Shown piece after piece: positions 1,011 through 35,387 of a DNA stretch of 49,096 nt (position 1 is its first letter; every line of letters starts with the position of its first letter). The notes beneath the pieces were generated by a model. That model did not search any database. It had not been told where the DNA came from and saw nothing but the letters and a program-made list of their open reading frames with translations. Origin of the DNA: Nemertoderma westbladi (taxonomy: Eukaryota > Animalia > Xenacoelomorpha); the NCBI GenBank assembly GCA_032718475.1, contig JAUCBJ010008642.1:1-49096 (forward strand). The letters are read 5' to 3'. A program made the translations under genes and the position numbers.

Positions 1011-1028
1011 CTATATATATAAATATCC

Positions 1029-5439: not shown

Positions 5440-7227
5440 TACTTTGCAGATCTATTCCCGACCATAGACTGTGTGTTTGGGAGGACACCGATCAATCTGC
5501 AATTCTCCAGTCTGCCGCTAGGGGGCGAAATATCCGAAACTGAAAACATCTCCCATTTCGTTATTATTAAAGCCTTTTAGCTGATACATTGCAGAGGTCT
5601 TCTACACCATAGGCTGTGTGTTTGGGGAGGATGCTGACCAATCTGCAATTCCCCAGTCTGCCGCTAGGGGGAGAAATATCTGAAAGTGAAAACCTTATCC
5701 CATTTCTTTGTTTATAATGCTTTTTTGCTGATACTTGGCAGAGGTCTACTACACCATACAGCGTGTTTGGGGAGGAGCTAGAGTCAGTCTGCATTTCTCC
5801 AGTCTACCGCTAGGGGGCGAAATGTCTGAAAGGGAAAACCTTATCCCATTTCGTTATTAATAATGCTTTTAGGCTGACACTTGGCAGATGTGTATTACAC
5901 CATATGGTGTGTGTCTGTGGAGGACGCCCAACTACCTGCAGTTCTCCATTCGGCCGCTAGGGGGCGAAATATCTGTAAGTGAAAACCTTATCCCCTTTCG
6001 TTGTTTATAATGCTTTTAGGCTGATACTTGGCAGATGTCTACTACACCATAGACTGCGTGTTTGTGGAGAACTCTGACCAATCTGCAATTCCTCTGTCTG
6101 CCACTAGGGGGCCAAATGTCTGAAAGTGAAAACCTTATCCCATTTCGTTATTAATAATGCTTTTGGGCTGACACTTGGCAGATGTGTATTACACCATATG
6201 GTGTGTGTCTGTGGAGGACGCCCAACTACCTGCAGTTCTCCATTCGGCCACTAAGGGGCGAAATATCTGAAAGTGAAAACCTTATCCCATTTCGTTGTTT
6301 ATAATTCTTATAGGCTGGTACTTGGCAGAGGTCTACTACACCATAGGCTGCGTGTTTGAGGAGAACTCTGACCAATCTGCAATTCCTCTGTCTGCCACTA
6401 GGGGGCCAAATGTCTGAAAGGGAAAACCTTATCCCATTTCGTTATTAATTATGCTTTTAGGCTGACAATTGGCAGATGTGTATTACACCATATGGTGTGT
6501 GTCTGTGGAGGACGCCCAACTACCTGCAGTTCTCCATTCGGCCGCTAGGGGGCGAAATATCTGTAAGTGAAAACCTTATCCCATTTCGTTGTTTATAATG
6601 CTTTTAGGCTGATACTTGGCAGATGTCTACTACACCATAGACTGCGTGTTTGTGGAGAACTCTGACCAATCTGCAATTCCTCTGTCTGCCACTAGGGGGC
6701 CAAATGTCTGAAAGTGAAAACCTTATCCCATTTCGTTATTAATAATGCTTTTGGGCTGACACTTGGCAGATGTGTATTACACCATATGGTGTGTGTCTGT
6801 GGAGGACGCCCAACTACCTGCAGTTCTCCATTCGGCCACTAAGGGGCGAAATATCTGAAAGTGAAAACCTTATCCCATTTTGTTGTTTATAATTCTTATA
6901 GGCTGGTACTTGGCAGAGGTCTACTACACCATAGGCTGCGTGTTTGTGGAGAACTCTGACCAATCTGCAATTCCTCTGTCTGCCACTAGGGGGCCAAATG
7001 TCTGAAAGTGAAAACCTTATCCCATTTCGTTATTAATAATGCTTTTAGGCTGACACTTGGCAGATGTGTATTACACCATAGGATGTGTGTCTGAAGAGGA
7101 CGCCGAACAACCTGCAGTTCTCTATTCGGCCGCTAGGGGGCGAAATGTCTGAACGTGAAAACCTTATCCCGTTTCGTTGTTTCTAATGCTTTTTTTTAGG
7201 CTGATACTTGTCAGAGGTCTACTACAC
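5440..7227 (+). repeat. 147-bp monomer array (12 units) with 294/588-bp higher-order structure
   Basis: Cores every 147 bp from ~5515 to ~7130. A and B monomers alternate, and the diagnostic variant GAAAGGGAAAACC recurs 588 bp apart. Confidence 0.9.
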
Positions 7228-8434
7228 TGTAAAAGCTTTTGTGGGATGACTAGCTCGTTTGCCTTGCTAAACAGTTCCCCCCCCCAATCGCTGGAATACT
7301 CTCAAAGGGATCTGGCTTGAATGGCAAGCTGCCTGTTGGTTGGCTAGATTGCTCTTCCCTGGATGAAAGCTCTTAATAAGCCTACCGGACATATCTGCCA
7401 ATAAGATTGGAGCTAGTTCTGATTTTGTCCAATACCACGCTACTGAACTGAAAATCCCATCTGTATGCTCTTTCTCTGTGTTGAACGGGAGCCTGTTCCA
7501 CGTAGTTAAAGTTCTTAGTATTTCATCATTCAGTAGTCACGAGTTTACCTCTAAGCCAGAAAGAACGGCATTAGAATTGTTTTCCCTAATTTTTATACGA
7601 AATATTAGTGGGCATAGATTATAGAAAGTATAACTGTTATCGATTCACATATCATTACGATCTTATGTCACATATCACAACAACTTAACAATTCACGGCC
7701 TACAATTCGGTTCATATCTTTTATATCATATCTTAACCTACCGTCTTACTGCTTTTATTGTTTGTAATTATTTGTATCAGTTGGTTTGATGTTATTATTT
7801 GGAAAATATCAACGAACATCCCAAATTTCCCAATTTTCTTGATGCACTACAGCTTAGAGAGACAGTTTACTTATAACGATTGCGACTTTATTATTGTGGT
7901 TTGTATTGAATCTAATGTTATTTGATAGCCACTACAGGAGTCAATTGCTGATCTCTTTATGTGTGATCAAAGTCAGTAACTGTCGGCAAACCAGTGAGCA
8001 GTATTGTGCGGTACCGGTAGTGCGTGTGATCGTGATTGTGATTGATAACTAAGCATTCCTAAAGAATGTGCCTCATACTTGAATTCTAAGCCATATAGTT
8101 GTGTGTAGTATAAGTCACAGCTCTGTTTACATAGATAGAGCGCCACGTCCTAAAGGAACTGCTAATATTTCCCGAAAGTGAATAATATTTGTCAGAGATT
8201 ATATATTACTGATCAATCGAATAATATACGTAGGCTTCACTGCAATAAATCTAAGCCATCCAAATCCAGTCTCCCGGGCGTAGCCATCGGGTGAATGAAC
8301 GCGCACAGGCTGGCTTCGGCTAATATTGTGTTTGTTTTATATTAAATCTTGTCATTCGTATAAAAATTAATTTATCAACAAAAACATATAAATTTTGGCA
8401 GGTTAAACTGCTGAAGGTCTAAAAAGCGCGTACA
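7228..8434 (+). repeat. 5' LTR of element 1 (1207 bp)
   Basis: TGTAAAAGC...AAAAAGCGCGTACA. The end is defined by homology to the TSD-bounded end of element 2. By eye it differs from the 3' LTR by 4 substitutions and 1 C-run indel. Confidence 0.9.
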
Positions 8435-8446
8435 ATAACAGTTATA
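8435..8446 (+). promoter_or_regulatory. Non-tRNA primer-binding site candidate (ATAACAGTTATA)
   Basis: Abuts the LTR terminal CA, lacks TGG, and is the exact reverse complement of TATAACTGTTAT at 7629-7640 inside the LTR. Confidence 0.6.
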
Positions 8447-9300: not shown

Positions 9301-10466
9301 TTATGCGATTACTCGCAACATTCATGTCCCTAAGTTATTCCTACAGTAATTGTGTTTGTTATACATACCGTTATAGTTAAATTAACCCCGGTACTACACG
9401 GGCTGCTTGGCGTAGGTAAAGACTGGTGACATTGTGCTCTGGTCACTCCAGCAGATGCTGTGGTTCTTTTAACTGTTCAAGTATATTTAACTACTGGTTA
9501 TCTGTTTTACAAGTACTTGTACCTAATTTAGGGTTTAGTGTACAGTGCTTTCCGAGAGTAATTGGTGTAGGCATTATATTTGTGTTGTAAAGTGGTTGGT
9601 AGGCACATTCGTTAGCTCTATTAGCTTCTAGGTAGGAACACTCCGTGATACATAACGTAGTACCTATAGCGATACGGCTGTAGGTCGTCAAGCGGTGGTA
9701 TTTTCCTATCTGGACAACGCAGTATGGTACTTCTGCTTATTATTTTCAAATACTGTAGTATCCTGTCCGTGGTAATAATCAGCAGTTCTAACCCTTTGTT
9801 AGACTAGTTCGTAGTTTCCCTGTTAAATTACCCTAAAATTTTGTACGTATTGTTTTTTCTTGTGTTTAATAGAGATTGTAATCTCATCCTTATAGTAAGT
9901 AATTAGTAGATAAGTAACATAGGCCAGTAGAATTATTCCTTTTAGTGTCAATAATTAACACTTCACTGAAAGCGCACCGCTTCTGTGTAGTGATTATTTC
10001 CTAGAAATAGTAACATCTATTTCAGCATCGTAACAAAAACCCCTTATCATCAGGGTATATATATATAAATATTATAAATCAACTTAAAAGATTTATAAAT
10101 TAGTAGGCCTGTCATACAACAAATAGGTCTTAATATCAGTTGGGCTATTGCTAAAATAACGGTAATAGAGTAAACTCAAGTAACTAAGTAACATTATAAT
10201 TTCAGAAATTCAATTATCCTAAATAATTGATATACCGGTATCTGTAATAGACTTATTATATAGTTGTATATATTTGCACTGAAATTATATACCGGTATTC
10301 TGTGACAAACCTAGTCTGCAATACTTATTGTTATATACTATAAGTGTATACCGGTATCCTAATATATTGTAATTAATTACCGGTACTAGGCCAACAGTTC
10401 TACTGAGTTACTAGATTTGTTTTAACTGTAACTATAGCAGTAGGCATTCAACTGTATAACTAAAAT

Positions 10467-13400
10467 ATGTCTGACACACCACAAAACCTATCAGATAGTC
10501 TACTTGACATAACCATCTGTGATACAGATAGGACTGTGGAACGATTAAGAGAGGAGTTCCGTTCACCTCCTGCTAAAAGAAAGGTCACTCCTCCAGTAGT
10601 ATCAGACCCTAGGCTAATCCACCATAGGTCAATTATAGGCACTCGAGCCCAGGTCAAACGGGACCAAGAGGCAGCTGTCCTATCACAGCAACGTCTTGGT
10701 CAAGAACCTGATTCCAAGCGACACGATAGCTCCAGTAGCTCGGATACTGTAGAGCTGAATCCCGAACGTGGAGTGAAGATGGTGGATACAGCTTACTCAG
10801 ATCCTCTTCTCACTCTTCCAGCCGCAGTACTAACTATGATCTTGATTGCGGTGGAGGAACACCTAAGCGATTGGGCGAGAAATAAGCGATCGACCCAGGA
10901 TAATTATGCGGGATACGCAAGGGAAGAATTGATGTCTATTGTTGAGTCACAATGGAACTTTCCCGGACCAGGATTCCCGCTGGATTTGTCAGAAGCTACT
11001 TGGGAAGACATATACCGGATGGGAGTGGCTAAGGAGACAACGGATCCAGCTGTCTGGAAGAGGTCGGCAGCGGGGTATGTGCAGGGATTCTTCGGCTCCT
11101 TAGAGAGACTAGAAGAACAACTGTTTAGACAACCAAAAGGACCTCAAGAGCAGGAAGAGCTGCTTTATCAAGTACGCGAAAGAACTCTACGCATCAGACT
11201 GATCCTATCGGCCTTTGAGGAAACTTCCAAAAGAAAGCAGGACACGTCGCTGCAAGTTGCTGTCAAGACTTGGTTCCATCGGGTAGGTCTCAAAGTTCAA
11301 GAAACAGCCCAGTGGAAATCCCGGTTGGCGGAGCGACCCACCTACGAAGAATCAACCGATGCCACTTTTTCTCAAGTGGAAAGTGAAGTGACAGCAGAGA
11401 AACCGCGACCGAGAGACGACATTGATATCTATCTGTCAGACTATCAGAGATTCATAGGAGACGAGGAGTTGAGAAGACGGCTGGCTGGACTTTCCCCTAA
11501 TAGTGAAGGAACCAAGCATGTGTTGGACGCACTCGATACTGAAATGTTAGCCGCAAAACAAGCTGAATTTGATGAACAACTCCGCATCGCTAGAGCCCAG
11601 GAAGAACAAGTCAAGAAAAAACAGATAGAGGACCGAAAGGCAGAAGCAGCGGCAAAAGCGGCAGCGGCAATGGAAGCAGAAAGAAAGGTGACAGAAGTAG
11701 AAAGAAAGGCGGCAGAAGCAGAAAGAAAGACACAAGTGGCAGTGGCAGAGGTAGAAAGAAAAGCGGCAGAAGCAGAAAGAAAGACACAAGTGGCAGTGGC
11801 AGAGGTAGAAAGAAAAGCGGCAGAAGCAGAAAGAAAGACACAAGTGGCAGTGGCAGAGGCAGAAAGAAAAGCGGCGGAAGCCTTGGCAGAAGCAGAAAGG
11901 AGAGCATCTGACGAGATCGCCCAGCTAGCGTTGGAAAATATTCAGGAAAGTCAAGATAGTATAAATAAACGGTTAACGGATAGCCGAATGCAATTGATGA
12001 GTCGATCTACTTCCAAACGCCAAGGCTATACATCATCGGAGGAAGGAGACACCACCGACCCTGAAGGTGAAGGAAATAGATCTCGTCTAAGTAGGCGTAA
12101 AAGAATGTCCCCTCGCCAGAAATTGCCTGATTTACCTCCAGCTGTTAGAAGACAACTAACTAGCACAGTCGTAAGTGGTACCGGACCCACAGACCGAATT
12201 GTTACTGTAAGTAGACTCCCTACTATAACAGATGAACCTGAAATAATTAGGCCTGTTCTCGAAGCCACCACTTCTGTGCTAGAGACACCTGTATTCCAGG
12301 GAGCAACCTCTAAATTCCCTTTACACAGCACGAAACTATCAGTGTCTAGTAGAACAGCCCCTGAAGTGGTTCCTGTCATGGACTCCGAGCGAATGGATTG
12401 GTCGCCCGTAGTCCCTCGTCCGCCCGCCACATCGTTGGCGACTCCCGCTTCGGCGGTCGAGTGGGTGGAGGAGAGACGGAGGGGGATGGATGTCCTGCTC
12501 GGACAGATGCAAGAGACAGTCCACCAGTTCAGGGGAACTGTCAGGGAAAGTAGGTTAGAGCTGCAAGAAGTGCAGCAAAGTATCGCGCTAGAACGCGATA
12601 AATTAGTAAATGTAAAAAAGGGCATACCAACACCCCCTGTAACAATGTGTCAACCTGTTAGGCCTGAAGGATTTCATGCGCAAGGTGTGGAGCCTACACG
12701 CATCTATACTGCTAGTGAAGTAGAAACTCCTATAGCAAACCCTATTAAGGGTGATTATAAACCTGTTTGTAATGATATACCCTATAGACCTGATAATAAT
12801 CCTAGAAATTTATATACCGATAATTCGATATTAAATAACACGATGGCCCAAGAAAGCTTTACGCGTCAGATGGCTAGAACAGAAGCCCGCCAAGCGGTAA
12901 AAGTGGGAGAAATCGTCAAATTTAATGGAGATGAGATGAAATGGTTACCTTTTAATGAATATTACGAAGATAGCATACAGAATTCTGTACTATCTAGCGG
13001 AGAAAAACTGAGATTCCTCATCAAATGTTTGGAAGGACCTCCCAAGTTAATGGCGTTGAAGTTTATTGGACATCCAAGTGGATTAAGACAAGTGTGGGAT
13101 ACATTAAACACCAGGTATGGTAATAAGGATAATATCGCTAAGTATTTGTACGCAAAATTAGTAGCTCCCCGAAAATTCCTTAGTAACGAGATTATAGAGT
13201 TTTCAGATGAGATTCAAGAGATCTGCCGACAATTGGATTGGTTAGGTAAGTCGCAGGAATATCAGAGTTCTATGGTTATTGGAGCCATAGTCTCTACTTT
13301 ACCAAAAGGTGGAGTATGTACTCGCTGGGACAAGAAAGTGTTGTATATGATGGAGCAACAACGACGGAGCCCTACCATGGCTGATCTCATGTCATTCCTA

Positions 13401-15590
13401 GACGGTGAAGTCAAACTACAACTTATAAAGCAGTCCCGAGAAAAAACATCGGAAAATAAGGTAAGTGAGAAACCAGTTACTAGGAGAAGAGTAAATCCAG
13501 TATGTTATACTGACGACGGCGAAAGCCAAGCTTCTCAAGAAGAGGACAGCGGAAAAGACACTGACCACTCTTACTATGTTAATAAAAATCAGAGAGATGT
13601 AAGTAAATATAAGCCTCGAACGAATGATAGGAGAGACAAGGTTACCAAGACCCCTCCTCAGTCTCCCAACAGAATTCAGATAAGAAAGCCCGAAGAAAGA
13701 GCGAAAGTACATAACATAACCCAAGGTAAGGTGAGCAACATCAAGCCAAACTGTTTGCTGTGCGATGGGCCCCACCGTTTGAGTGCGTGTGCTGAATTTC
13801 TTAAGAAATCTCTAGTATCCAGACGAGAAGTCGTGTGGGATAAGCGGTTATGTTATAATTGTCTCAGACCAGGACACCAACGGCGAACTTGTTACTCTGA
13901 CATAAAGTGTGCAAAGTGCGGTGCGAAACATCACGTCTTGTTACACAGTGAATTCGAACGAAACCACCCGAGTCAGGTAAGTGAGCCCAAATTACATGTC
14001 CCATTCAGTGATGTGAACGACACTGACCAAGGTTCTGAGTGGGAAGGATTCTATACAGATGAATTCTCCGACGCCAACGAATCCTGTTATCTGATAAATA
14101 CCGCAGTGTATCGAGCACTTACATATGAAGAGGACACCGATACTGAGTTCCCCCTAACCACCTTTGACAAGAAACCATCTTGGAAAGCTCCAACTTCCAA
14201 CGTAGGAATACGAGAATTTCCGGTAGTACAGGTAAGAGTTCACGGTCCTAATAAAAGTTATATAGTGAACGCCCTCCTTGACTCCGGAAGTACCGGAACA
14301 TTCATCGACACAGAACTAGCCGAGGATATCTTTGCTGGACAACCCAAATTCCGAACTAAGTTAAATATGTCCGGAATTATGCAGGTTTGGAAATCTACCA
14401 TAGCAGTAGATTATTACATAGGCGCGTTGTCCACCCCACAGGATACATTAGGAGAACAAAGTATAAGGTCAGTAAAAATGGTGGCAATAAAGAACTTCGC
14501 CACTACCCAAGTGGAACCTTATAACTGGGACGAAGACGAGAGCATCCAACATTTGGAGATACCTCGATTCCCAACAGATTATCCTGGAGTGCAAATTCTC
14601 ATCGGCCAAAACGCTCATGAAGCGCTAGAAACATTGGAGAAACGACCTGCTCAACCGCAGCCATTACAAACTTATGCGGTAAGAACTAGAGTAGGTTGGT
14701 ACTTTACTGGCCCTTCCCGCAGAACTCTTGAAGAAAGATTGCCACAAGATCGGCTACTTCAAGTAAAGGATTGGGAAGAGGAGAACAGTGAGGTTGACGA
14801 ACCCACTGAGGGAATACCATACTCCTCAGACAATGACGACATATATCAACTCTTCGAGGAAGAGAACACGATCGACTTATTAACTGAAAATAAATCCTGG
14901 AACAATCAGCTAACTTTATGTCATCTGATTCACCCATCGGGACCCATGGAATACAACGATGAACTCAATGAGGAAATAGAGCGTTACAACGCTAGAATCC
15001 GGGATGAACTCGCTGTACGATTCTTTACACAAGAGTTGGTAGAACCAAATTCATACGATAAGGCTCTATCAATAGAAGAGGAAAGAGCCAAGCAAATCCA
15101 GGAGACAACTACACGTTTTCTGAAGGATCAAGGAAGATATGAAATTGGTCTACCATTTCGAAAGCGAGAACCTAGATTTATAAACAACCGACCATTAGCA
15201 GAGAAAAGAATTGCTCAATTACATCGACGCCTCACGGCAAATGCTTCAGCTAAAGAAATGTACCAAACGCAGTTGAAGAAATTTATAGATAAAGGTTATG
15301 CGGAAAGAGTACCGGAAGAAACACCCATAACCGAAAGAACATACTATCTAACGCATCATTACGTTCCCAAACCCGGTAAACCACATGAAGTAAGAGTTGT
15401 ATTCGATGGCTCCGCTCTATATATGGGTCAATCTCTCAATTCCGAGTTGTTACCAGGACCCAACTTGCTTCAATCTTTGTTGGGAATACTTCTCAGATTA
15501 AGACAATATTCCATCGCGTTCGCCTCTGATATAGAAGGCATGTTCTTACACGTTCGTGGGGCCTTCGCGCAGCACGAGGTCCAGTTATGA
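10467..15590 (+). CDS. BEL/Pao gag-pol polyprotein N-terminal part (Gag, zinc knuckles, aspartic protease, start of RT); authentic frame ends at 15550 where the insertion begins
   Basis: 1707-aa ORF with CLLCDGPHRLSAC / CYNCLRPGHQRRTC / CAKCGAKHHVLLH knuckles, LLDSGS protease site, and YYLTHH...RVVFDGS...SLNSELLPGPNL...SDIEGMF RT motifs. Confidence 0.92.
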   Translation: MSDTPQNLSDSLLDITICDTDRTVERLREEFRSPPAKRKVTPPVVSDPRLIHHRSIIGTRAQVKRDQEAAVLSQQRLGQEPDSKRHDSSSSSDTVELNPERGVKMVDTAYSDPLLTLPAAVLTMILIAVEEHLSDWARNKRSTQDNYAGYAREELMSIVESQWNFPGPGFPLDLSEATWEDIYRMGVAKETTDPAVWKRSAAGYVQGFFGSLERLEEQLFRQPKGPQEQEELLYQVRERTLRIRLILSAFEETSKRKQDTSLQVAVKTWFHRVGLKVQETAQWKSRLAERPTYEESTDATFSQVESEVTAEKPRPRDDIDIYLSDYQRFIGDEELRRRLAGLSPNSEGTKHVLDALDTEMLAAKQAEFDEQLRIARAQEEQVKKKQIEDRKAEAAAKAAAAMEAERKVTEVERKAAEAERKTQVAVAEVERKAAEAERKTQVAVAEVERKAAEAERKTQVAVAEAERKAAEALAEAERRASDEIAQLALENIQESQDSINKRLTDSRMQLMSRSTSKRQGYTSSEEGDTTDPEGEGNRSRLSRRKRMSPRQKLPDLPPAVRRQLTSTVVSGTGPTDRIVTVSRLPTITDEPEIIRPVLEATTSVLETPVFQGATSKFPLHSTKLSVSSRTAPEVVPVMDSERMDWSPVVPRPPATSLATPASAVEWVEERRRGMDVLLGQMQETVHQFRGTVRESRLELQEVQQSIALERDKLVNVKKGIPTPPVTMCQPVRPEGFHAQGVEPTRIYTASEVETPIANPIKGDYKPVCNDIPYRPDNNPRNLYTDNSILNNTMAQESFTRQMARTEARQAVKVGEIVKFNGDEMKWLPFNEYYEDSIQNSVLSSGEKLRFLIKCLEGPPKLMALKFIGHPSGLRQVWDTLNTRYGNKDNIAKYLYAKLVAPRKFLSNEIIEFSDEIQEICRQLDWLGKSQEYQSSMVIGAIVSTLPKGGVCTRWDKKVLYMMEQQRRSPTMADLMSFLDGEVKLQLIKQSREKTSENKVSEKPVTRRRVNPVCYTDDGESQASQEEDSGKDTDHSYYVNKNQRDVSKYKPRTNDRRDKVTKTPPQSPNRIQIRKPEERAKVHNITQGKVSNIKPNCLLCDGPHRLSACAEFLKKSLVSRREVVWDKRLCYNCLRPGHQRRTCYSDIKCAKCGAKHHVLLHSEFERNHPSQVSEPKLHVPFSDVNDTDQGSEWEGFYTDEFSDANESCYLINTAVYRALTYEEDTDTEFPLTTFDKKPSWKAPTSNVGIREFPVVQVRVHGPNKSYIVNALLDSGSTGTFIDTELAEDIFAGQPKFRTKLNMSGIMQVWKSTIAVDYYIGALSTPQDTLGEQSIRSVKMVAIKNFATTQVEPYNWDEDESIQHLEIPRFPTDYPGVQILIGQNAHEALETLEKRPAQPQPLQTYAVRTRVGWYFTGPSRRTLEERLPQDRLLQVKDWEEENSEVDEPTEGIPYSSDNDDIYQLFEEENTIDLLTENKSWNNQLTLCHLIHPSGPMEYNDELNEEIERYNARIRDELAVRFFTQELVEPNSYDKALSIEEERAKQIQETTTRFLKDQGRYEIGLPFRKREPRFINNRPLAEKRIAQLHRRLTANASAKEMYQTQLKKFIDKGYAERVPEETPITERTYYLTHHYVPKPGKPHEVRVVFDGSALYMGQSLNSELLPGPNLLQSLLGILLRLRQYSIAFASDIEGMFLHVRGAFAQHEVQL
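11680..11895 (+). repeat. 54-bp coding tandem repeat in gag (AEVERKAAEAERKTQVAV x3)
   Basis: Visible in both the DNA and the translation. Confidence 0.85.
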
Positions 15591-18025
15591 GATACAAATT
15601 AAAATTAAGCGACTGTATCACAAAATCAGGTTTTGAGAAATTTACCCACACCACCAATCAATCAAAGAAAGGGGGACAGTACGTGTTCACCCCTTTTAAT
15701 CCCCCCCCCCCCCCCCACCCTTCTCAACCACCAATACATAACCATGACATCTACCACCCACAGAAGGGTAGAACGAACTTATTTCCAATCACACGTTAAA
15801 TATGCAAAGCCAGGTGGTGTATATGAATATAATCAACGCCGTACTCGTCTTAATTATTATAAGCGTCGTTCAATCGTTGCGCTCGTCCAGAGTAAGTCCC
15901 CCCCCCCCCCCCCCCCCCCCCCTATCAGAAAGATTTACTCAACAAAAAATAGTGTAAATAAATAAACAACTACAAGGATAAGAGGTCATGTGTAGGAAAG
16001 CTAATCAGACGATACCTTTACTAATATATTGAGCTGCATTGATCTATACATAGTAATGTTGGGTGATGGGGGGGGGGGGGGGGGGGGGGGTGAGGGGTAG
16101 GGGGTGTCTGGGTGGGTTGTTAGTATTAGAGTGCACAATATCGACGCACGCGCAGGAATGTGTTGATGTTTAATAGCACCGCATTCCCGCGTTAGAAAGC
16201 ATCCCCAATTGGAATAAATAAATTAATTAAACGCGTTTCGTTATGTTCCTCGACTTATATTATTCTCTCCACGGACGAGATATTAGCTGCTAGACAGGTA
16301 GACCTAGTCCCCCACAACAACGGTCATACCTTCAATCAATCAATCAATTGAGCTCATATGAGCTCGTATATTAGTTTTATTTATAAATTGAAATCTCACG
16401 AATTAATAGGCCTATTAGCTGATTAGTGAACTATCATATGTTAGACCATATATATATATTATATATTGGACCTTATCAAAATAGCGGTTGTACTGGGGCG
16501 GTATATGTTGTTCTCTAACCCACTGCAAGCGCATTTGAGGGGCCGGTATGTTTTAATAACTTCTGGTACAACGGGATGCAGTATTACAGCGCCAAGTAGA
16601 TTTAATCTGATCAGAATATTCCGGACGCTAAGTTCATGTCATTCCCGATAAGTCGGGACTTTACAAAACTCGTGGATAAAACCGCGTGTAGCAGAGAGCA
16701 GATAAATTGGGTTGAATTGCAAAACAGAATAATATGGAACTGTAAGTGGAACTGCGGCGATTTGGGTTTTTTTGTTATGGTGAATAGTCAGCCTGTCCGC
16801 GATATGTTCAGCTGCCCTTTTTAATGGGTTGCAGGTACAAATGAAATACACATTGCAGTTACTAAAATAAAAGTGGCGCATATTATTGTACATTTACAAC
16901 AACAATTATATAAATGCAATATGCCTGATCCCTATTAATGTACTTTGTACCGCCAATTCTGTAATTCAATAACGCAAAGCCGCGTTTACTGTACAGCAGC
17001 ACGTAATATATTTGATACTTATTATACTAACTAAACTAACAAACCGCAAGGCCTACTTACCGAAATAAATTAACTTTCAGTTAAATACAATATACTTGTT
17101 TGCTCTGTAAAAATTTTAATTAAAAACAATCCTGCCATTTAATATACCTAATTAGCATGGTTGCGTAAGCAGTATGAATTGGAATGAAATTGTGAAATAA
17201 TTTATTTAAACTATTATGTACATTTAGATTAAATAATAATACAGTAAGTTGGCCTACAGAAATAAACATTGATATTCGGAACAGTAAAACAATTATTTAT
17301 TTCATTCATTCAACTAACCAGAGAGACTCATAGCTCCAGTGAATATTAACATCCCGACGTTACTTTAGTAATAATATTAATGTCATTGAACCCGATACAC
17401 ACACACCTCCAATCAGCCAGTTCAATGGAGAGTGAGTGAATGGATGGCTACTAGCAGCAGCAGCAGTCTGCCTCTTACAAGCAAGGCTGACTGAATACCT
17501 CAAGTGTTGCTGGGAATCAAGCCAACTTGGATGTTAACCAATAAATGAGCAGTATTTAATGAGAATACATTTTTTATGCCGGTTTAATTACTTTAGATCA
17601 ATTAAAGACACGATTATTAAAGCAAATCACTTGAACTAATTAAAAACTATAATAGAATGGAGTATGCGGATTACATCTGTATATTTTTTAAGTATAATTA
17701 TTGAAGTCTTATACTGTAAAACAATTAATTTCCTTTAAAAGGCAGGTTGAAAATGGTGTTTTTACCGTAATCAACTTAATTAACTAATTAACTGCTATTA
17801 TCTTAGCTTCTCGAAGGCCACACGGAAATTCTACTTGGAAAATTTCTAAACTTTTGCCATACAACATGTGTACCAAGTTTGGATAGATTTCATCAAAGAT
17901 TGGCCGAGTTATTAACGTTTAAAATTGAACACGACAGAACGACAGAACGACAGAACGACAGAACGACAGGTTGATTAATGGTACCACTGACGCTAAGGCT
18001 CACTCACTTCGTGGCTCGCCCCACA
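15551..18025 (-). mobile_element. 2.5-kb non-coding insertion, Helentron/DINE-1-like non-autonomous element
   Basis: Removing it restores TTA-CAG-GTC-AAG (L-Q-V-K-ALDRDRDSLRFLWW) in frame. It has short inverted ends GTGGGGC/GCCCCAC, ACA on both flanks, a terminal GAA-loop hairpin, a (GACAGAAC)n microsatellite, and an AAACTTGGTACACATG core on the minus strand. The family assignment is inference. Confidence 0.75.
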
Positions 18026-18923
18026 GGTCAAGGCGCTAGACAGAGATAGAGACAGTCTAAGGTTTCTATGGTGGCCTGAAGGCGACCTCGAACAGAAACC
18101 AGTGGAGTACTGGATGACCATCCAGGCCTTTGGGATCATATCCAGTCCTTCGAACGCCTGCTCCGTAGTGCGAACTACTGCAGATGACAACAGAGACGCC
18201 TTCTCCAAAGAGGTGATTGATAACATCAAAAAGGACATCTATATGGACGACAATTTAAAGTCCCTTCCATCGGTAAAAGAAGCCATTGATGTCGCAAAGG
18301 GAACGATAGAGTGTTTGAAAAGAGGTGGATTTCGACTGACGAAATTCACTAGCAACTCCCGTGAGTTTCTGGAAGCGATACCAGTAGAAGACCGAGGAAC
18401 AAAAGACCTCGACCTAATAAAAGATGATCTTCCAGAAACCAAGACACTTGGCTAAAAATGCGACACAGAGAAGGATATCCTGTTTTTTCAGCTAAAACAG
18501 CGAGAGAATCCAGTTCGGACCAAACGGATTTGTTTAAGTATTTTGAGCACCTATTTCGACCCATTGGGATTTATTAGCCCAGTTATATTGATTGCTCGGA
18601 GTTTAGTACAACAAATGTGGCTTGAAAACCACTCATGGGACGATCCACTTACGGGAGAACTGTTGAAGAAATGGATGAAATGGGAAGATTCTCTACCCGC
18701 CATCGAGGGTTTTCTAATTCCCCATTCATATTTTGGCCATGTTCTCCCTACGTATTCCTATCAACTCCATGTGTTTGGAGATGCTAGCGATATGGGAATA
18801 GGAATAGTAGCATACCTTAGAGTCGAAACCCCGGATGGAATCAAAGTCGCCTTGGTTACCTCTAAGGCATTGATTAACAATAAGTTGAAGGTTCCTCGAG
18901 CGGAGTTAAAAGCGGCTCTCTAG
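18026..18923 (+). pseudogene. BEL/Pao pol continuation: RT core and RNase H, with in-frame stop at 18453-18455 and 1-bp frameshift at ~18921
   Basis: LRFLWW, YMDD catalytic motif, GGFRLTKFTSN, FDPLGFISP, HVFGDAS, PRAELKAA. Confidence 0.9.
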
Positions 18924-18997
18924 CTACTGCCATCGGACGTAATGTCACAGAACAGATCGATTATCCACTGGAGAAAACTGTTTATTGGACCGATGCT

Positions 18998-21124
18998 TTG
19001 CTCGTGTTGGAGTATATAACCAATGAAGTCTGTCAGTTCAGCGTCTTTGTTACCAACAGAGTGGCCATTATCCTTAGTCGAACAACGATAGATCAATGGA
19101 GACATTGCCCTGGTACGATTAATCCAGCCGACATCGCATCCAGAGGAGCAACTCCACAGGAGCTGATAGATACTCCCGACTGGTTGGGTGGACCCGACTT
19201 CTTGAGCAAAGAAGAAGATGAATGGCCTCCTCACCTTACTACAGCGGAGATCAGACAGGCCAAGGGAGCGGAAAAGGTAAAACCTAAAACCCGAGCGAGC
19301 AAATCGAAACTATTTAAACCGACAATCGATCTATCTGTATTACATGCTTCCGGAAACGATGCTTCGGATCTACCATCCCTCGTCACAAACAAATCTGTTG
19401 TTGAAATTAAGAATAGAGATTGGAAATCTGGAATACCAGACGTCTCGCAAGGAATCTCACCTCTGATACAGAGAGCAATACATCATTACAGTTCCTGGAA
19501 TCGGCTCTGTAAGGCCGTCGCCTATTTAAAGCGGTTTTTTCATCATCGATATTCCAGGACGAAGACCACTGATGAGACTGCTCCATTAACATCAGCCCAG
19601 GTTCATGTCATTAAAGACCTACCAAAATATAAAATACCCGAGAGGTTTCTAAAAGAAAAGATCACTTACCAGGAGCATGACGAAGCCAATAAACAGCTAC
19701 TGCGACTCCTGCAATGCTACGAGGATTCCGATAAGTATTTCCTGTTGTTAAGAAATCCACAGATGCGCTTAAGGGATCGCTTCTCGAGCACCATGATAGA
19801 TGGGTTAATACGTGTTGGAGGAAGATTGACCAATGCGCCAATATCCTTTGACACTAAATTACCCATACTCATTAGAAATCTTGAAGTACAAATCAAGATG
19901 ATTGTAGATGTTCACAGTAAACTGTATCATGCTGGTAGAGAACGAGTTCTTAGCGAAATTCGAACTCGCTATTATTTCTATAAACCCCGTAGAGCTCTGA
20001 ACCAAATTCTTAGGAATTGCATACCTTGTAGGAAAGCATTCAGTAGGCCTTTAACTCAGCGAGAGGCAGAATTACCTAGGGAACGAGTAAGCTTCTATGA
20101 ACCACCCTTCACTAATACTGGTGTGGATTTATTTGGCCCTATTGAAGTATATCGTGCTAGGACTATAGTCAAGAGATGGTGTGTCATCTTCGTATGTATG
20201 ACTTGTAGAGCCATCCATCTTGATATGGTGAACGATCTATCTACTAACAGTTTTGTCTTAAGTTTACGACGACAGATCGCTCGCTTCGGAACTAGTAATA
20301 CCATGCGATCGGACAAAGGAACGAACTTCATTGGTGCCAACAACGAAATCCAAGCTTACATGAGGGACTGGAACCAGAGACAGGTGGACGATCAGCTAAG
20401 AATAACTGCATCTAGCTGGACCTTCAACGCCGCCGACGCCCCCTGGTGGGGAGGAAGTTGGGAGAGATTAATCCGAAGTGTTAAGACCGCATTTCACTTT
20501 ATAGTGCCGTGTCGTGCGTATCTCACCGATGAACTTTTGCGGACGTTAATGGAGGAAATAGCTGCCTATCTCAATGAGAGACCGCTCATGCCAGTCTCCT
20601 CGAGTCCCGATTCCCTGGAAGCGCTAACACCAGCGCACTTCCTACTAAAGAAACCTGTAGCCATGCTCCCACGACCCGAGATTGCCGACGGAGACGAATA
20701 TTGCCGTCGAACTTGGCAACTTATACAATTGCTATCCCGTCGTTTCGCTGACCATTTTGAGAAGCATTATCTGCCCACGCTACAACTTCGAACTAAGTGG
20801 TTTGCGCAGCAGGAGAATGTCAGCGCCGGAGACATGGTGCTTATTGTGGATCCCGACCTCCCACGTAAGCGTTGGCAGACAGGTCGCATCATCGAGACAC
20901 ATGTCTCAAATGATGGTTTGGTGCGCTCGGTAGAACTCGTCGTCATGCGGCGTAACTTCAAAAAACCGGGTATAATCTTTGAGACGCAACAACTCAATCG
21001 CCCAGTCGGTCGTTTATGTTTGCTGGAACGAGATCGGGAACTCTCCGGAAACTATGGAAGACAAGAAACCCTTCCCACGACCACTTCCCTAATTCCTCAA
21101 ACATCTAGGGACTCCCCGCCGTAA
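18998..21124 (+). CDS. BEL/Pao pol C-terminal part: RNase H end, linker and DDE integrase (frameshifted continuation of gag-pol)
   Basis: FVTNRV, WRHCPGTINPADIASRG, HSKLYH...CIPC zinc finger, VDLFGP, SDKGTNF, PWWGGSWERL, LTPAHFL, LRTKW, DGLVRSV, RPVGRL. Confidence 0.92.
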   Translation: MLVLEYITNEVCQFSVFVTNRVAIILSRTTIDQWRHCPGTINPADIASRGATPQELIDTPDWLGGPDFLSKEEDEWPPHLTTAEIRQAKGAEKVKPKTRASKSKLFKPTIDLSVLHASGNDASDLPSLVTNKSVVEIKNRDWKSGIPDVSQGISPLIQRAIHHYSSWNRLCKAVAYLKRFFHHRYSRTKTTDETAPLTSAQVHVIKDLPKYKIPERFLKEKITYQEHDEANKQLLRLLQCYEDSDKYFLLLRNPQMRLRDRFSSTMIDGLIRVGGRLTNAPISFDTKLPILIRNLEVQIKMIVDVHSKLYHAGRERVLSEIRTRYYFYKPRRALNQILRNCIPCRKAFSRPLTQREAELPRERVSFYEPPFTNTGVDLFGPIEVYRARTIVKRWCVIFVCMTCRAIHLDMVNDLSTNSFVLSLRRQIARFGTSNTMRSDKGTNFIGANNEIQAYMRDWNQRQVDDQLRITASSWTFNAADAPWWGGSWERLIRSVKTAFHFIVPCRAYLTDELLRTLMEEIAAYLNERPLMPVSSSPDSLEALTPAHFLLKKPVAMLPRPEIADGDEYCRRTWQLIQLLSRRFADHFEKHYLPTLQLRTKWFAQQENVSAGDMVLIVDPDLPRKRWQTGRIIETHVSNDGLVRSVELVVMRRNFKKPGIIFETQQLNRPVGRLCLLERDRELSGNYGRQETLPTTTSLIPQTSRDSPP

Positions 21125-24192: not shown

Positions 24193-24200
24193 GGGAGCGG
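24193..24200 (+). promoter_or_regulatory. Polypurine tract
   Basis: GGGAGCGG immediately before the TGT of the 3' LTR. Confidence 0.7.
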
Positions 24201-25406
24201 TGTAAAAGCTTTTGTGGGATGACTAGCTCGTTTGCCTTGCTAAACAGTTCCCCCCCCAATCGCTGGAATACTCTCAAAGGGATCTGGCTTGAATGGCAAG
24301 CTGCCTGTTGGTTGGCTAGATTGCTCTTCCCTGGATGAAAGCTCTTAATAAGCCTACCGGACATATCTGCCAATAAGATTGGAGCTAGTTCTGATTTTGT
24401 CCAATACCACGCTACTGAACTGAAAATCCCATCTGTATGCTCTTTCTCTGTGTTGAACGGGAGCCTGTTCCACGTAGTTAAAGTTCTTAGTATTTCATCA
24501 TTCAGTAGTCACGAGATTACCTCTAAGCCAGAAAGAACGGCATTAGAATTGTTTTCCCTAATTTTTATACGAAATATTAGTGGGCATAGATTATAGAAAG
24601 TATAACTGTTATCGATTCACATATCATTACGATCTTATGTCACATATCACAACAACTTAACAATTCACGGCCTACAATTCGGTTCATATCTTTTATATCA
24701 TATCTTAACCTACCGTCTTACTGCTTTTATTGTTTGTAATTATTTGTATCAGTTGGTTTGATGTTATTATTTGGAAAATATCAACGAACATCCCAAATTT
24801 CCCAATTTTCTTGATGCACTACAGCTTAGAGAGACAGTTTACTTATAACGATTGCGACTTTATTATTGTGGTTTGTATTGAATCTAATGTTATTTGATAG
24901 CCACTACAGGAGTCAATTGCTGATCTCTTTATGTGTGATCAAAGTCAGTAACTGTCGGCAAACCAGTGAGCAGTATTGTGCGGTACCGGTAGTGCGTGTG
25001 ATCGTGATTGTGATTGATAACTAAGCATTCCTAAAGAATGTGCCTCATACTTGAATTCTAAGCCATATAGTTGTGTGTAGTATAAGTCACAGCTCTGTTT
25101 ACATAGATAGAGCGCCACGTCCTAAAGGAACTGCTAATATTTCCCGAAAGTGAATAATATTTGTCAGAGATTATATATTACTGATCAATCGAATAATATA
25201 CGAAGGCTTCACTGCAATAAATCTAAGCCATCCGAATCCAGTCTCCCGGGCGTAGCCATCGGGTGAATGAACGCGCACAGGCTGGCTTCGGCTAATATTG
25301 TGTTTGTTTTATATTAAATCTTGTCATTCGTATAAAAATTAATTTATCAACAAAGACATATAAATTTTGGCAGGTTAAACTGCTGAAGGTCTAAAAAGCG
25401 CGTACA
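24201..25406 (+). repeat. 3' LTR of element 1 (1206 bp)
   Basis: Near-identical to 7228-8434. Confidence 0.92.
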
Positions 25407-25691
25407 ATAACAGTTATAGATCTTATTGCAGTAAGCAATAAGGTTGCCAAGTACCGGTCGACCGGTAAACCTGAACCGATACTTCGGTAGGTCGGTAGGC
25501 CTAACTGTCGGAACCGGTACTGCTGTACAAGTACATTTAGTATTATTCGATTTGATTGTTGTATACCGGTAGGTCTCGATATTAAATCGGGGACGCCTGG
25601 TTTTTATTGGGATTTTACTTAGGTCTATTTCTGTCAGTTTTATTTACTAGTAAGTTAATATTGAGTTGAAGACGTGTAAAAAGCGCGTACA
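25407..25691 (+). repeat. Extra copy of PBS + leader (8435-8707) capped by a second LTR terminus
   Basis: Matches the 5' leader up to GACGTGTAA, then continues AAAGCGCGTACA and the TSD. Confidence 0.85.
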
Positions 25692-28230: not shown

Positions 28231-28241
28231 AACAGCATCAG

Positions 28242-29420
28242 TGTAAAAGCTTTTGTGGGATATAACTGGCCCTTTTGCTCCGCAATCCAGTTTCCCCCAA
28301 TGCGCTCAAATACTCTAAAAACTCCCTAACTCAAATGATACGATCTACCAGCTGATTGGCTGATTTGCTGTACGCATGGCCTCTTTGTTCTGTTCGATCA
28401 ACCAATCAGAACAACGATCAACCAAGCAGAGTGATTCATCCTTGTGTTGGCGAGGGGGTGCAAACGCTAGGGTGGTTTGGCATTTTGGACCATTTGGGAC
28501 CTGTAGAATCTGGAGCTCTGCCAATGAGAGCTATTTCTTTTTGTGTTGAAAGCTACCTGCAACAGCCCACAGGGATCAGTGTGTTGGTTTTCCTAGCCCA
28601 GAACATCGGCTGTGGAATGATTCTGTGTTTCAGACTTTAGCCAACATTAGTACGGCTTTAATTATAGGAACACATAACTGTTATCGGGCAAACTCAAACG
28701 ACACAAACTCAAACTCATATTGTCAAACCTTTCACCGCATTATTGTACTGCTATTTACTGTTGGTTATTAATTGTATCAGTTGATTGAATATTGTTATTT
28801 GGAGAATATCGATAATTGATCATAAAACCCCAATCTTCTTGATACACTAAAGGTTAGAGAGACCGGTTACATATAGCAATTGCGACTTACATTATATTGG
28901 TTTGTAGTGAGTTGAATGCTATTTCATAGGCCCTACAAATGTCGGTTGCTATTCTCTTTATATATGATTAAAATCAGTGAAGATCGGCAGATTAGTGTGC
29001 AGTATTGTGCGGTAGTGTGTATGAGCTTGACTGATAACAAAGCATCTCCTAAAGAATGCGCCTTATGTGTAAATCCTAAGCCATCCCGTTGTGTTTAGTA
29101 TAAGTAACTCTGTTTACATATTTAGAGCGCCACGTCCTAAAGGAACTGCTAATATTTCCCGAAAGTGAATAATATTTGTCAGAGATTATATATTAATGAT
29201 CAATCGAATGGTACAGTAGGCCTACACCGCAATAAGATTAAAGCTTCCGAATCCAGTCTCCCGGGTATATCCAACGGGTAAATGGTCGCGCATAGGCTGG
29301 CTTCGGCTAATGTAGTGTTTATTTGTATCAAATACTCGTCATAGGCTAAAGTCGATTTATAACCTAGAAGACATCTAAATTTGGCAGGTTAAACTGGTAA
29401 AGGTCTGAAAAACGCGAACA
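28242..29420 (+). repeat. 5' LTR of element 2
   Basis: Its 3' ~765 bp recur at 39463-40231. It ends ACGCGAACA and is followed by ATAACAGTTAT. Confidence 0.88.
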
Positions 29421-29431
29421 ATAACAGTTAT
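29421..29431 (+). promoter_or_regulatory. Non-tRNA primer-binding site candidate (ATAACAGTTAT)
   Basis: Abuts the LTR and is the reverse complement of ATAACTGTTAT at 28674-28684. Confidence 0.6.
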
Positions 29432-30285: not shown

Positions 30286-31622
30286 GAGTTTATGCGATTA
30301 TTCGCAACATTCATATCCCCAAGTTTATTCCTACAGTAATTGTGCTTGTTATACATACCGTTATAGTTAAATTAACCCCGGTACTACATCAGGGCTGCTC
30401 GGCGTAGGTAAAGACTGGTGATTTTGTGCTCTGGTCACTCCGGCAGATACTGTGGTTCTTTTAGCTGTACAAGTATTTTTAACTGCTGGTTATTTGTTAT
30501 ACAAGTACTTGTACCTAATTTAGGGTTTAGTGTACAGTGCTTTCCGAAGATAATTAGTGTGTAGGCAGTATATTTGTGTTGTAAAGTGGTTAATAGGCAC
30601 GTTGGCTCTGGTAGGCCGCGGTAATTAACTTCTAGGTAGGAACACTCCGTGAAACATAACGTAGTACTTATAGCGATACGGCTATAAGTCATCAGACGGT
30701 GGTATTTTTCCTATCTGGACAACGCAGTATATTTACTATTGCTTTATTATTCTCAAATACCGTAGTATCCTGTCCGTTGTAATAACCAGAAATTCTAACC
30801 CTTTGTTAGGCTGGTTTGTAGATTCCCTGTAAAATTAACCCTAAAAATTCGTACGTGTAATTTTTTGTGTTCATTTAGAGATTGTAATCTCACCCTGTAT
30901 TGTACGTAATTCGTAGATAAGTAACTTAGGCCAGTAGAATTATTTGTTTTAGTGTCCAATAAGTAGCACTTCACTGAGAGCGCACAGCTTCTGTGTAGTG
31001 ATTACTTCCCAGAAATAATAAATCTATTTCAATATTGTAACAAAACCCCTCATACGGGTATATATATTATAAATCAACCCAAATCGATTTATAAAATAGT
31101 AGGCCTGTCATACAACAATTAGGTCTTAATATCAGTTGGACTACTGCTTAAATAACGGTAATAAAGTAAAGTAAAGTAACTAAGTAACCCTTAAAATTCA
31201 GAAATTCAATTATTCTAAAATAATTGACATCCCGGTATTTACAATAGGCTTATTATATTTATTCTATAAATCTAAGCTGAAATTATATACCGGTACTGGT
31301 ATTCTGTAATTAATTCTAGTCTATAATTATACTTATATATACTATAAGTGTAAGCTGTATACCGGTATTCACGATAGGCTTATTATATATTTATATATAT
31401 TTGTGCTGAAATTATATACCGGTATTCTGTGACAAACCTAGTCTGTAATAATACTTATATATACTATAAGTGTATACCGGTATTCTAAAATATTGTGTAT
31501 ATATATCACGTTACACTGAGTCACGGTATCGATAATTAATTACTAGGCTAACAGTCATACTGAATTACTAGACTTGCTTTAACTGTATTTATAGCAGAAG
31601 GCATTCAACTGTATAAACAAAC

Positions 31623-34600
31623 ATGTCTGACACAAAGCAAAACCTGTCAGACAGTCTACTAGATATAACCATCAATCAGTTTTCTCCAGTGGAAAGCGAA
31701 GTGACAGCAGAGAAACCGCGAACGAGGGACGCTATTGACATCTATCTGTCAGACTATCAACGATTCCTAGGTGACGAAGAGTTGAGGAGATGGCTGTCTG
31801 GACTTCGCCCTAATAGTGAAGGAGCCAAGCTTGTGTTGGACGCAATAGATGTGGAAATGTTAGCTGCAAACCAAGCTAAATTTGAAGAACGCCTCCGCAT
31901 CGCTAGAGTCCAAGAAGAACAAGTGAAGAAAAAACGTATAGAAGACAGAAAGACAGCGGCGATGGCAGCGGCAGAAGCAGAAAGAAAAGCAGCAGTAGCA
32001 GTGGCAATGGCAATGGCAGAAGCGGAAAGAAAGGCGGCGGAGGCAGTGGCAACTGCCGAAGCGGAAAGAAAGATAGCAGTGGCAGAAGCAGAATGGAGAG
32101 CATCGGAAGAGACCACCCAACTGGAGTTGGAAAATCTTCAAGAGATGCAAGACTGCATAAATAAACAGTTAACAGCTAGTCAAATGCAGATGATGATTCG
32201 ATCTACTCCCAAACGACGAGGATATACATCATCTGAGGAAGGCGATACCACCGATCCTGAAGGCTGAGGAAATAGATCTTGTCTAAGTAGGCGTAGAAGA
32301 ACATCTCACCGTCACAAATTGCCTGATTTGCCTCCAGCTGTTAGAAGACAAATAGCTAGCACAGACTTAGGTAGTACAGAACCCACAGACCAAATTATTA
32401 CTGTAGAAAGACTCCCTACTATAGTAGATGAGCCTGAAATAATTAGGCCTGTTCTCGAAGCCACCCCTTCGGCGATAGAGACACCTGTACTCCCCGAACC
32501 TACCTCTAAATTCCCTTTGCATAGCACTAAATTGCCTGTGCCCAGCAGAACCGCCCATGAGACAGTTCCTGTCCTGGACTCCGAGCGAAATATCCGAGAT
32601 TTGTCGCCTGTTGTTTCCCGTCTGCCCGCTACTATGTTGGCGACTCCCGCTTCAGCGGTTGAGTGGGTGGATGAGAGACGGCGGGGGATGGATCTCCTGC
32701 TCGGGCAGATGCAGGAGACTGTTCAGCAGTTCAAGGGCACAGTAAGGGAAAGTAGGTTAGAGTTGCAAGAAGTGCAGCAAAGTATCGCGTTAGAACGCAA
32801 TAAATTAGTAAATATACAAAAGGGTATACCACCACCACCTGTAACCATGTGTCAACCTGTTAGGTCTGAAGTATTTCATGCGCAAGGTGTGGAGCCTACA
32901 CGCATCTATACTGCTAGTGAAGTAAAAACTCCTATAGTAAACCCTATTAAGGGTAATTATAAACCTGTTGATAATAATATTCCATATAGACCTGATAATA
33001 ATCCGAGAAATTTATATACCGATAACTCGATATTAAATAACACGATGGCCCAAGAAAGCTTTACGCGTCAAATGGCTAGAACCGAAGCCCGTCAAGCGGT
33101 CAAAGTGGGAGAGATCGTCAAGTTCAATGGAGATGAGATGAAATGGTTACCTTTTAATGAATATTACAAAGATAACATACAGAACTCTGTACTATCTAAC
33201 GGAGAGAAACTTAGATTCCTCCTCGAGTGTTTGGAAGGACCTCCCAAGTTAATGGCGTTAAAGTTTATTGGACATCCAGATGGATTAAGACAAGTTTGGG
33301 ATACATTAAACATCAGGTATGGTAATAGGACAAATATAGCTAGGTATTTGTATGCGAAATTGGTAGCGCCTCGAAAGTTTCTTAGCAGCGGGATTATAGA
33401 ATTCTCCGATGAGATCCAGGAAATCTGTAGACAGCTAGACTGGCTAGGTAAGTCTCATGAATATGAGAATTCTATGGTTGTAGGAGCCTTAGCATCAGCT
33501 TTGCCAAAGGGTGGAGTGGGTACTCGTTGGGACAAAAGAGTACTATATATGATGGAACAACAACAAAGAGACCCTACCATGGCTGATCTCATCTCATTCT
33601 TAGATGGAGAGGTAAAATTACAGCTCCTAAAGCAGTCCCGAGAGAAGACCCTGGAGAACAAGGTGAGTGAAAAACCCGTTTCTAGGAGAAAAATAACACC
33701 AGTGTGTTATACAGACGAAGGCGAAAGCCAGACCTCCCATGAGGAGAACAGCGGGAAAGACACAGCAAGATCTTACTATGACAACAAAATCCCTCAAGAC
33801 ATAAGTAAATTTAAGTCTCGAACCAGTGACAGGAGAGAACAGGTAACAACAACTCCTCCTACGTCTCCTAAGAGAATTCATAGAAGAAAGCCCGAGGAAA
33901 GAACAAGTGTGCACCACACAGCACAGGTTAAAGTAAGTAACATCAAGCCCAAATGTGTATTGTGTGACGGGCCCCATCGCTTAAGTGGATGTGATGAATT
34001 CTTAAAGAAATCCCTAAAGGATAGACGTGATGTCATGTGGGATAAGCGGTTGTGTTATAATTGTCTCAGACGCGGACACCAACGGCGAACCTGTTACTCA
34101 GACACGAGGTGCGCTAAGTGCGGTGCGAAACATCATATCTTGCTGCACACAGAATTTGAAAGAAAAAACCCGAGTCAGGTAAGTGAGCCCGAATTACATG
34201 TCCAATTCAGTGATGTGAACGACACTGACCAAAGTTCTGAGATGGAAGGATTCTATACGGACAAATTCTCCGACGAAAACGAATCCTGTTACGTAATAAA
34301 TACCGCAGTGTATCGAGCACTTGCGTATGAAAAAGACACTGACAGTGAGCCCCCCCTAACTACTTCTGGCCGACAATCGTCTTGGAAAGCACCAACTTCC
34401 AATGTAGGAATCCGAGAATTTCCTGTAGTGCAGTTGAGGATCCACGGGCCACGAAAAAGTTTCATAGTGAATGCCCTTCTTGACTCCGGCAGCACAGGAA
34501 CATTCATCGATAAAGAACTAGCCGAGGACATCTTTGCTGGACAACCCAAGTTCCGAACTAAGTTAAACATGTCAGGAATTATGCAGGTTTGGAAATCTAC

Positions 34601-35387
34601 AGTAATTGCAGATTACTATGTAAGTGCGTTGTCCACTCCCCAGGATGAATTAGGAGAACACAGTATAAGGTCAGTAAAAATGGTGGCGATAAAGAACTTC
34701 GCTACCAGCCAAGTGGAACCTTATAACTGGGACGAGGACGATTGCGCCCAGCAGCTTAAGATACCTCGATTTAACACAGACTATCCTGGAGTACAAATAC
34801 TCATCGGCCAAAATGCGCATGAGGCGCTTGAGACATTGGAGAAACGGCCTGCTCAACCGCAACCACTACAAACCTATGCGGGAAGAACTAGAGTAGGTTG
34901 GTACTTTACTGGACCTTTCCGTCGAACTCTCATGGAAAGGCTGCCCAAAGATCGCGTCTACCAGGTGAGTGAATGGGAAGATGAGACCAGTGAGGTGGAC
35001 GACCCAACTGAGGGAACACCATACTCCTCAGATAATGACGATATTAACTCTAATGTAGATCAATGGAGACATTGCCCCGAGACGATTAATCTAGCCGGCA
35101 TCGCTTCCAGAGGAGCAACTCCTCAAGAACTGATAGATACTCCAGGCTGGTTAGGTGGATCCGACTTCTTAAGTAAAGAAGAAGAAGAATGGCCTCCTCA
35201 TCTTACCACGGCGGAGATTAGACAGGCCAAGGGAGCGGAGAAAGTAACACAACAACTCAATCGCCCAGCTGGTCGTTTATGTTTACTGGAAAGAGACCGA
35301 AAACTGTCCGGAAACTATGGAAGGCAAGATACTCTTCCTACGACCACTTCCCTAATCCGACAAATATCTAGGGACTCCATAACGTAA
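31623..35387 (+). pseudogene. BEL/Pao gag-protease with one in-frame stop (32265-32267) and in-frame deletions removing RT, RNase H and most of integrase
   Basis: ORFs 31623-32267 and 32319-35387 are in the same frame. They contain the triple zinc knuckle and LLDSGS, jump SSDNDDI to DQWRHCP, and jump KGAEKV to TQQLNRP. Confidence 0.9.

Follow-up and report, generated by a model that had tools for sequence, protein, structure and literature searches.

A BEL/Pao retrotransposon family of Nemertoderma westbladi that probably primes reverse transcription with its own LTR RNA

Two related BEL/Pao elements

The window, by which we mean the whole 49,096-nt stretch of contig JAUCBJ010008642.1 (Nemertoderma westbladi, GCA_032718475.1) that was analyzed, holds two related BEL/Pao (Belpaoviridae) retrotransposons, both of them broken and both recent insertions (Table 1). 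Their LTRs run from TG to CA and are accompanied by 5-bp target-site duplications and a purine tract. Pfam domains DUF1759, Peptidase_A17, Integrase_H2C2 and DUF5641 occur in protease, reverse transcriptase (RT), RNase H, integrase order, and the homologues listed carry PF18701, mostly together with PF05380. The Pfam search of the elements found no chromodomain, and hence no Ty3/gypsy pol with chromodomain. Because the LTRs of each pair are nearly identical (1202/1207 positions in element 1, 756/769 in element 2), both insertions are young. The pol gene is broken in each, by an insertion in RT and frame breaks in element 1 and by the absence of RT and RNase H in element 2.

An earlier note on this DNA had fixed the LTR 3' end by the target-site duplication of element 2. 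That placement holds, and it is given by two duplications (ATCAG and TACAC), not one. Element 1 reads TACAC, LTR, internal region, LTR, 273 nt of leader, about 15 nt of the end of a third LTR, TACAC; the stretch 25407-25691 is the remnant of a tandem unit, and element 1 is a collapsed tandem. In element 2 the purine tract has been lost together with 413 nt of the 3' LTR in a deletion (39448-39463) whose ends were rejoined 19 nt upstream of the motif described below. As the target-site duplications are intact, this deletion probably postdates insertion. Element 2 also has an internal duplication of 1.3 kb (35247-36524 and 37198-38488, 91% identical) that spans the integrase end and the region following it. 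A post-pol region of about 3 kb (21125-24200 and 37339-39448) is 86-89% conserved between the elements and contains short open frames (22754-23101, 23812-24120 and 39137-39433) with no Pfam match; it is possibly a decayed third gene.

Table 1. Features of the two elements, in positions of the window.
Feature	Position	Strand	Remark
Element 1, target-site duplication (TACAC)	7223..7227	+	left copy; right copy 25692-25696
Element 1, 5' LTR	7228..8434	+	1207 nt, TG...CA
Element 1, candidate self-primer	7629..7640	+	exact complement of first 12 nt past LTR
Element 1, LTR segment of candidate flanking helix	8233..8253	+	predicted pairing with leader 8446-8466, just 3' of PBS
Element 1, primer-binding site (PBS) position	8435..8445	+	non-TGG; adjoins LTR end
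Element 1, gag-protease frame	10464..15590	+	DUF1759 match; extends to RT start; stops at insertion
Element 1, insertion inside RT	15590..17997	.	about 2.4 kb; dissimilar to remaining element; edges approximate
Element 1, broken RT, RNase H and integrase frames	17997..21124	+	Peptidase_A17, Integrase_H2C2, DUF5641
Element 1, purine-rich tract ahead of second LTR	24193..24200	+	
Element 1, second LTR	24201..25406	+	motif at 24602-24612
Element 1, PBS copy and 273 nt leader, then final ~15 nt of third LTR	25407..25691	+	
Element 2, target-site duplication (ATCAG)	28237-28241 and 40232-40236		
Element 2, 5' LTR	28242..29420	+	1179 nt
Element 2, candidate self-primer	28674..28684	+	
Element 2, PBS position	29421..29431	+	
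Element 2, broken gag-pol	31617..37338	+	without RT and RNase H
Element 2, 3' LTR	39463..40231	+	first 413 nt absent; motif at 39482-39492

A non-tRNA site matched inside the LTR

The sequence ATAACAGTTAT directly abuts each complete LTR with spacer 0, following the 5' LTRs at 8435 and 29421 and the second LTR of element 1 at 25407. Its complement ATAACTGTTAT lies within the LTRs at 7630, 24602, 28674 and 39482 (LTR position 403 in element 1 and 433 in element 2), and these seven places are the only ATAAC-N-GTTAT sites in the whole window. Element 1 has a 12-nt match and element 2 an 11-nt one, and the pairing ends precisely at the LTR's terminal CA. Both elements thus have what is taken as the mark of self-priming, an LTR complement of at least 10 nt lying 0-5 nt past the LTR. 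Among dinucleotide shuffles of LTR 1, 0/2000 reach 12 nt, and 0.1% of those of LTR 2 reach 11 nt (P about 0.001). When 1000 leader offsets were compared, element 1 had one equal match elsewhere (offset 134-135) and element 2 had none. TGG is absent from the first 151 nt of either leader, as is the 18-nt site for tRNA-Arg or tRNA-Gly. The earlier note had described both the non-TGG site and its exact complement, and both observations stand. ARAGORN found no tRNA in the window, and Rfam gave no match on 7200-10500.

With two adjoining bases, the motif is identical between elements 1 and 2 (13/13) and forms an isolated island. Identity upstream of it is 51% (48% when shuffled; 62% in the nearest 30 nt), and downstream it is 40% (shuffled 40%). 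The earlier note placed the start of resemblance between the two LTRs at about the motif, which proves incorrect: continuous similarity (78%) starts at about 7747, and the first 80 nt are also 75% alike. The earlier caveat that the motif is an interrupted palindrome is well founded, as 10 of its 11 positions are self-complementary. Because the two elements have one common motif, the pair carries no covariation information, and because that motif is also so nearly palindromic, the window by itself does not allow pairing of RNA to be told apart from duplication of a DNA site.

Covariation in related families

Relatives were sought by scanning metagenomes with an integrase alignment, which found 527; we kept 80 loci and tested 34 of them. 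The other kept loci mostly lack the LTR-leader region, and some are duplicates. Each test allowed a contiguous match or a match across a GT-AG junction, and the controls were given equal freedom. For seven relatives the LTR end was fixed independently by both LTR copies, and 27 further loci were scanned without a preset LTR end.

Six of the seven relatives with fixed ends match their own LTR over 10-12 nt, in different letters, each with P of 0.003 or less (300 shuffles). The match is contiguous over 11 nt in L001 and L034 and runs across a junction over 10-12 nt in L006, L017, L073 and L023. L033, the remaining one, belongs to the TGG type: its TGG comes after 5 nt, and it has no self-match. 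The LTRs of L001 (911) and L023 (91) end in TA, not CA, in both copies.

In the blind scan, 11/27 loci reach 11 nt under strict splice filters. Relaxed filters, under which the L024 region was lengthened by 40 nt, bring 14/27 loci to at least 11 nt, where 2.4 are expected and a reversed-not-complemented control gives 5; the other 13 fall short. Two loci, L007 and L044, repeat the L006 and L017 families. The top match of L012 is a different site and probably due to chance; L015 has a junction match by eye that failed the acceptor filter and was counted as a miss, and L056 was a miss as well. In a 21 x 21 cross-matrix, own pairs reach at least 10 nt in 20/21 families and foreign pairs in 7/420, six of these between sister families; the diagonal is partly circular, because 14 of the 21 LTR ends were chosen by eye with the match known.

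Match length is 11 in most families, with spacers of 0-4 nt. The paired site begins with GT in 17/19 matched relatives and with AT, as in the window, in the other two. The PBS 11-mers of six relatives are palindromic at just 0-2 of 11 positions. Across families the complement is kept while its letters differ. The earlier note had proposed a self-priming BEL/Pao lineage together with a covariation test on related families, and that test supports the proposal. The primer-to-LTR-end loop is 794 nt in element 1 and 736 nt in element 2, against 46-234 nt in relatives; the earlier note had named the length of the R and U5 regions (~800 nt) as a caveat.

A pattern search of viral contigs gave 97 matches, with no relative among them. 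In L025, positions 1-15884 repeat one element head to tail in 6138-bp units that are 100% identical, either a tandem array or an assembly of a circular form.

Predicted splice-built primers

Of the 19 matched relatives, 14 have a primer only if a predicted GT-AG junction is joined. The donor is GTAAGT in 8/11 spliced matches of the relaxed scan, compared with 12/521 candidate donors in the library. In L034 the 5' LTR part contains an intron-like stretch ahead of the acceptor, and the 3' LTR a joined, contiguous primer. The plain Tf1 layout assumed by the earlier note is therefore unsupported for most of these families. We propose that removal of an LTR intron by splicing would create the primer in most relatives, whereas the window family would carry a ready-made primer. 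If the 3' LTR copy in the RNA were spliced, intron-free LTRs might result, such as the 3' copy of L034 and perhaps those of the window family. If transcription began exactly at the primer, the first exon in the spliced relatives would be just 4-10 nt long.

In the window LTRs, no junction exceeded the contiguous match. Both elements conserve a donor-like GT (8291/29278) and, 33 nt short of the LTR end, an acceptor-like site (8291-8401 in element 1); this is a possible LTR intron of about 110 nt, not one that builds the primer.

Transcription start and RNA folding

Transcription had been suggested to start at about 7630, and for this we found no support: neither window LTR has a TATA box on the 5' side of the motif, and only one of 21 families has one at -24 to -36. 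Boxes in these families lie at -31 in one (L073), at -48 to -49 in two, at -122 to -167 in four and at -222 in one. Run X1 consists of contigs only, and its RNA origin is a guess. Two of these contigs differ at two PBS positions, the LTR motif falling outside them. Against element 1 and the element 2 LTR, the X1 matches listed include no GT-AG joint and leave the element 2 motif uncovered.

The primer:PBS duplex is weak (-10.1 kcal/mol). In a pseudoknot-free model, RNA that begins at the motif has a predicted pairing for this duplex of 0.24-0.68 in element 1 and of 0.01 in element 2; the value is 0 when the RNA begins at the LTR start, and a stem with 8037-8049 competes. Downstream of the motif the RNA is more stably folded than its shuffles (z -2.3 and -2.8); upstream it is not (z +0.9 and +0.7). 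Stems folded from the motif onward shorten the 794-nt primer-to-LTR-end distance, one of them competing with the primer.

The candidate helix between LTR and leader in element 1 (8233-8253, which includes the sole AATAAA of the 5' LTR at 8244) has a predicted stability of -20.2 kcal/mol, and 0/200 shuffles were as stable. Its counterpart in element 2 gives P 0.002 with a hand-picked window and P 0.74 in an unbiased scan. An LTR-end helix gives P 0.13 in element 1 and 0.42 in element 2, and among the relatives each of the two helices reaches P 0.05 or less in 3/19. Two further candidates were rejected: covariation of the long stem after the motif between elements 1 and 2 fails without the common core (P 0.04, 0.49), and a compensatory A:U/U:A pair near the LTR end is present, yet swapped pairs are about as stable.

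Phylogenetic placement

An unrooted tree was built from 802 columns of RT, RNase H and integrase. With support of 100/100, it divides all 20 self-matching rows from a group made up of the four TGG-type rows and L043. Outside this TGG group, the window element occupies a long unresolved branch; it is at most 42% identical to any row, and is divergent, not nested among the self-matching rows. An arrangement that joins the window element to the TGG types is not rejected (p-AU 0.395) when only integrase is used. Because the tree is unrooted, it does not show a single origin of self-matching.

Proposed mechanism and alternatives

The complement, its conservation and the matches in different letters among relatives make self-priming likely. 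Judging from sequence, we hold that the window elements probably prime reverse transcription with their own LTR RNA and not with a host tRNA. The transcript would start at or upstream of 7630 and fold, and the motif would pair with 8435-8445. A cut just 3' of the motif, perhaps by the element's own RNase H as in Tf1, would free a 3' end, from which RT, beginning at the terminal CA of the LTR, would make about 790 nt of minus-strand DNA. During synthesis of the plus strand the still-attached primer would then be copied and the PBS rewritten from it, which would keep PBS and motif in step. A primer at the very 5' end of the RNA would not be required. No RNA end, cut or splice was observed; all steps are inferred from what is described for Tf1 in the accessible parts of PMC7175516, PMC4600332 and bioRxiv 2022.12.06.519325, and from general knowledge of plus-strand synthesis.

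The motif could instead be a palindromic DNA-binding site or a direct duplication, with one copy inside the LTR and another following it, and its complementarity a by-product of the palindrome. The ATAACTGTTAT/ATAACAGTTAT motif presumably resembles Myb- or Ovo-type sites, its near-complete self-complementarity fits such a site, and read as a direct repeat it agrees at 13/15 positions in element 1 and 12/13 in element 2, so that the central base alone separates the two readings. That base, however, is complementary in both subfamilies, and the second copy begins exactly at the LTR edge. The PBSs of the six relatives are hardly palindromic, splice-split primers cannot be DNA sites, and the element would be left without a primer, all of which makes a DNA site improbable. 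We also give little credence to priming by a host RNA (a tRNA half, an unusual tRNA end or another small RNA), with the LTR complement serving as a regulatory hairpin or persisting as a relic. Host tRNA-Arg or tRNA-Gly is the recognized primer of Belpaoviridae (PMC8742986), tRNA halves prime several Copia lineages according to the portion of PMC6317226 available, and in element 2 the predicted primer:PBS duplex is out-competed. But neither leader has a TGG in 151 nt, and PBS sequences are diverse among the 19 matched relatives, every one finding its match in the LTR of its own element, a pattern for which a few host RNAs do not account.

Within self-priming, a special case is the strict Tf1 layout, in which 7630 is the precise start of transcription and the initial 11 nt serve as the primer. 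The prevailing match length of 11, the TATA box of L073 at -31 from its primer, the better folding after the motif than before it, and the predicted pairing in element 1 only with RNA starting at the motif are consistent with it, but the absence of a TATA box in the window LTRs and at -24 to -36 in 20/21 families, and the first exon of 4-10 nt that it would impose on spliced relatives, leave it rather doubtful. Returning to self-priming in general, we lean toward the view that a large BEL/Pao branch dropped tRNA priming for its own RNA; that most of its families splice an LTR intron to build the primer, so that host splicing gates replication; and that the window family is a deep, intron-free branch bridging about 790 nt.

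Relation to known priming systems

In Tf1 and Tf2 of Schizosaccharomyces pombe, Tj1 and the Tf1/sushi group (Ty3/gypsy chromoviruses), an LTR stretch of about 11 nt complements a non-tRNA PBS beside the 5' LTR (accessible parts of PMC7175516, PMC4600332 and bioRxiv 2022.12.06.519325), and Tf1 priming is described in them as needing two further helices beside the PBS. The window elements likewise have an LTR complement of about 11 nt to a non-tRNA PBS next to the 5' LTR, and so appear to resemble Tf1 in complement and in covariation, the latter drawn from relatives. Unlike that group, they are BEL/Pao with a loop of about 790 nt, and most of their relatives would need splicing to form a primer.

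The ICTV account (PMC8742986) has Belpaoviridae primed by tRNA-Arg or tRNA-Gly at an 18-nt PBS and their replication as poorly understood. The window elements agree with it in gag-protease-RT-RNase H-integrase order, Pao-specific Pfam domains and purine tract, and their LTR size is at the top of the 0.2-1.2 kb range; they differ in having no 18-nt tRNA PBS and in their long leader and 3-kb post-pol region.

Self-priming outside Ty3/gypsy, as the earlier note framed its candidate, is not new as such. For the Copia TAR lineage (Houba, Osr-1) and Tcn1 it has been predicted from an LTR complement of at least 10 nt situated 0-5 nt past the LTR (accessible part of PMC6317226), a definition that also takes in the window elements. 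Those are plant Copia and Gypsy lineages, however, and the same part of that paper describes no splice-built primer for them. In the literature searched, which included PMC554778 and PMC3286476 in the parts available, with subscription papers and Repbase/GyDB entries outside its scope, no report of BEL/Pao self-priming was found. A term look-up in the accessible main text of the Sinbad, BEL/Pao survey and GyDB network papers found no PBS or priming passage, and the available portions of PMC3118150 and PMC2774666 gave no match to such terms.

If our reading is true, self-priming extends to a third LTR superfamily, where it is common, and this bears on the published idea, set out in the part of PMC3601003 available, that tRNA priming came after self-priming. 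Where the primer is formed at a splice junction, reverse transcription would be coupled to host splicing. An annotation rule would also be gained for BEL/Pao elements without a tRNA site.

Surroundings of the elements

Both elements are inserted into or beside a tandem array of 146-147-bp units with higher-order periods of 294/441 bp (1845-7227 and 26693-28100). Every unit has a conserved GC-rich core, which may resemble a CTCF site. A third, unrelated BEL/Pao pol fragment lies on the minus strand (40733-44047), preceded by 18 copies of a 62-bp repeat and bracketed by a 390-nt direct repeat (40419-40810 and 45752-46142, 86%); no LTR-PBS junction is recognizable for it (40733-43009, minus strand). 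Also on the minus strand, 48573-49090 holds a 153-aa open frame in which a hydrophobic stretch is followed by 14-residue repeats (a 42-bp array); it has no Pfam match at cut-off, and a related piece lies at 46606-46689. At the opposite end of the window, positions 1-70 (minus strand) are an LTR start of the same family, 76% alike over 71 nt and running off the edge.
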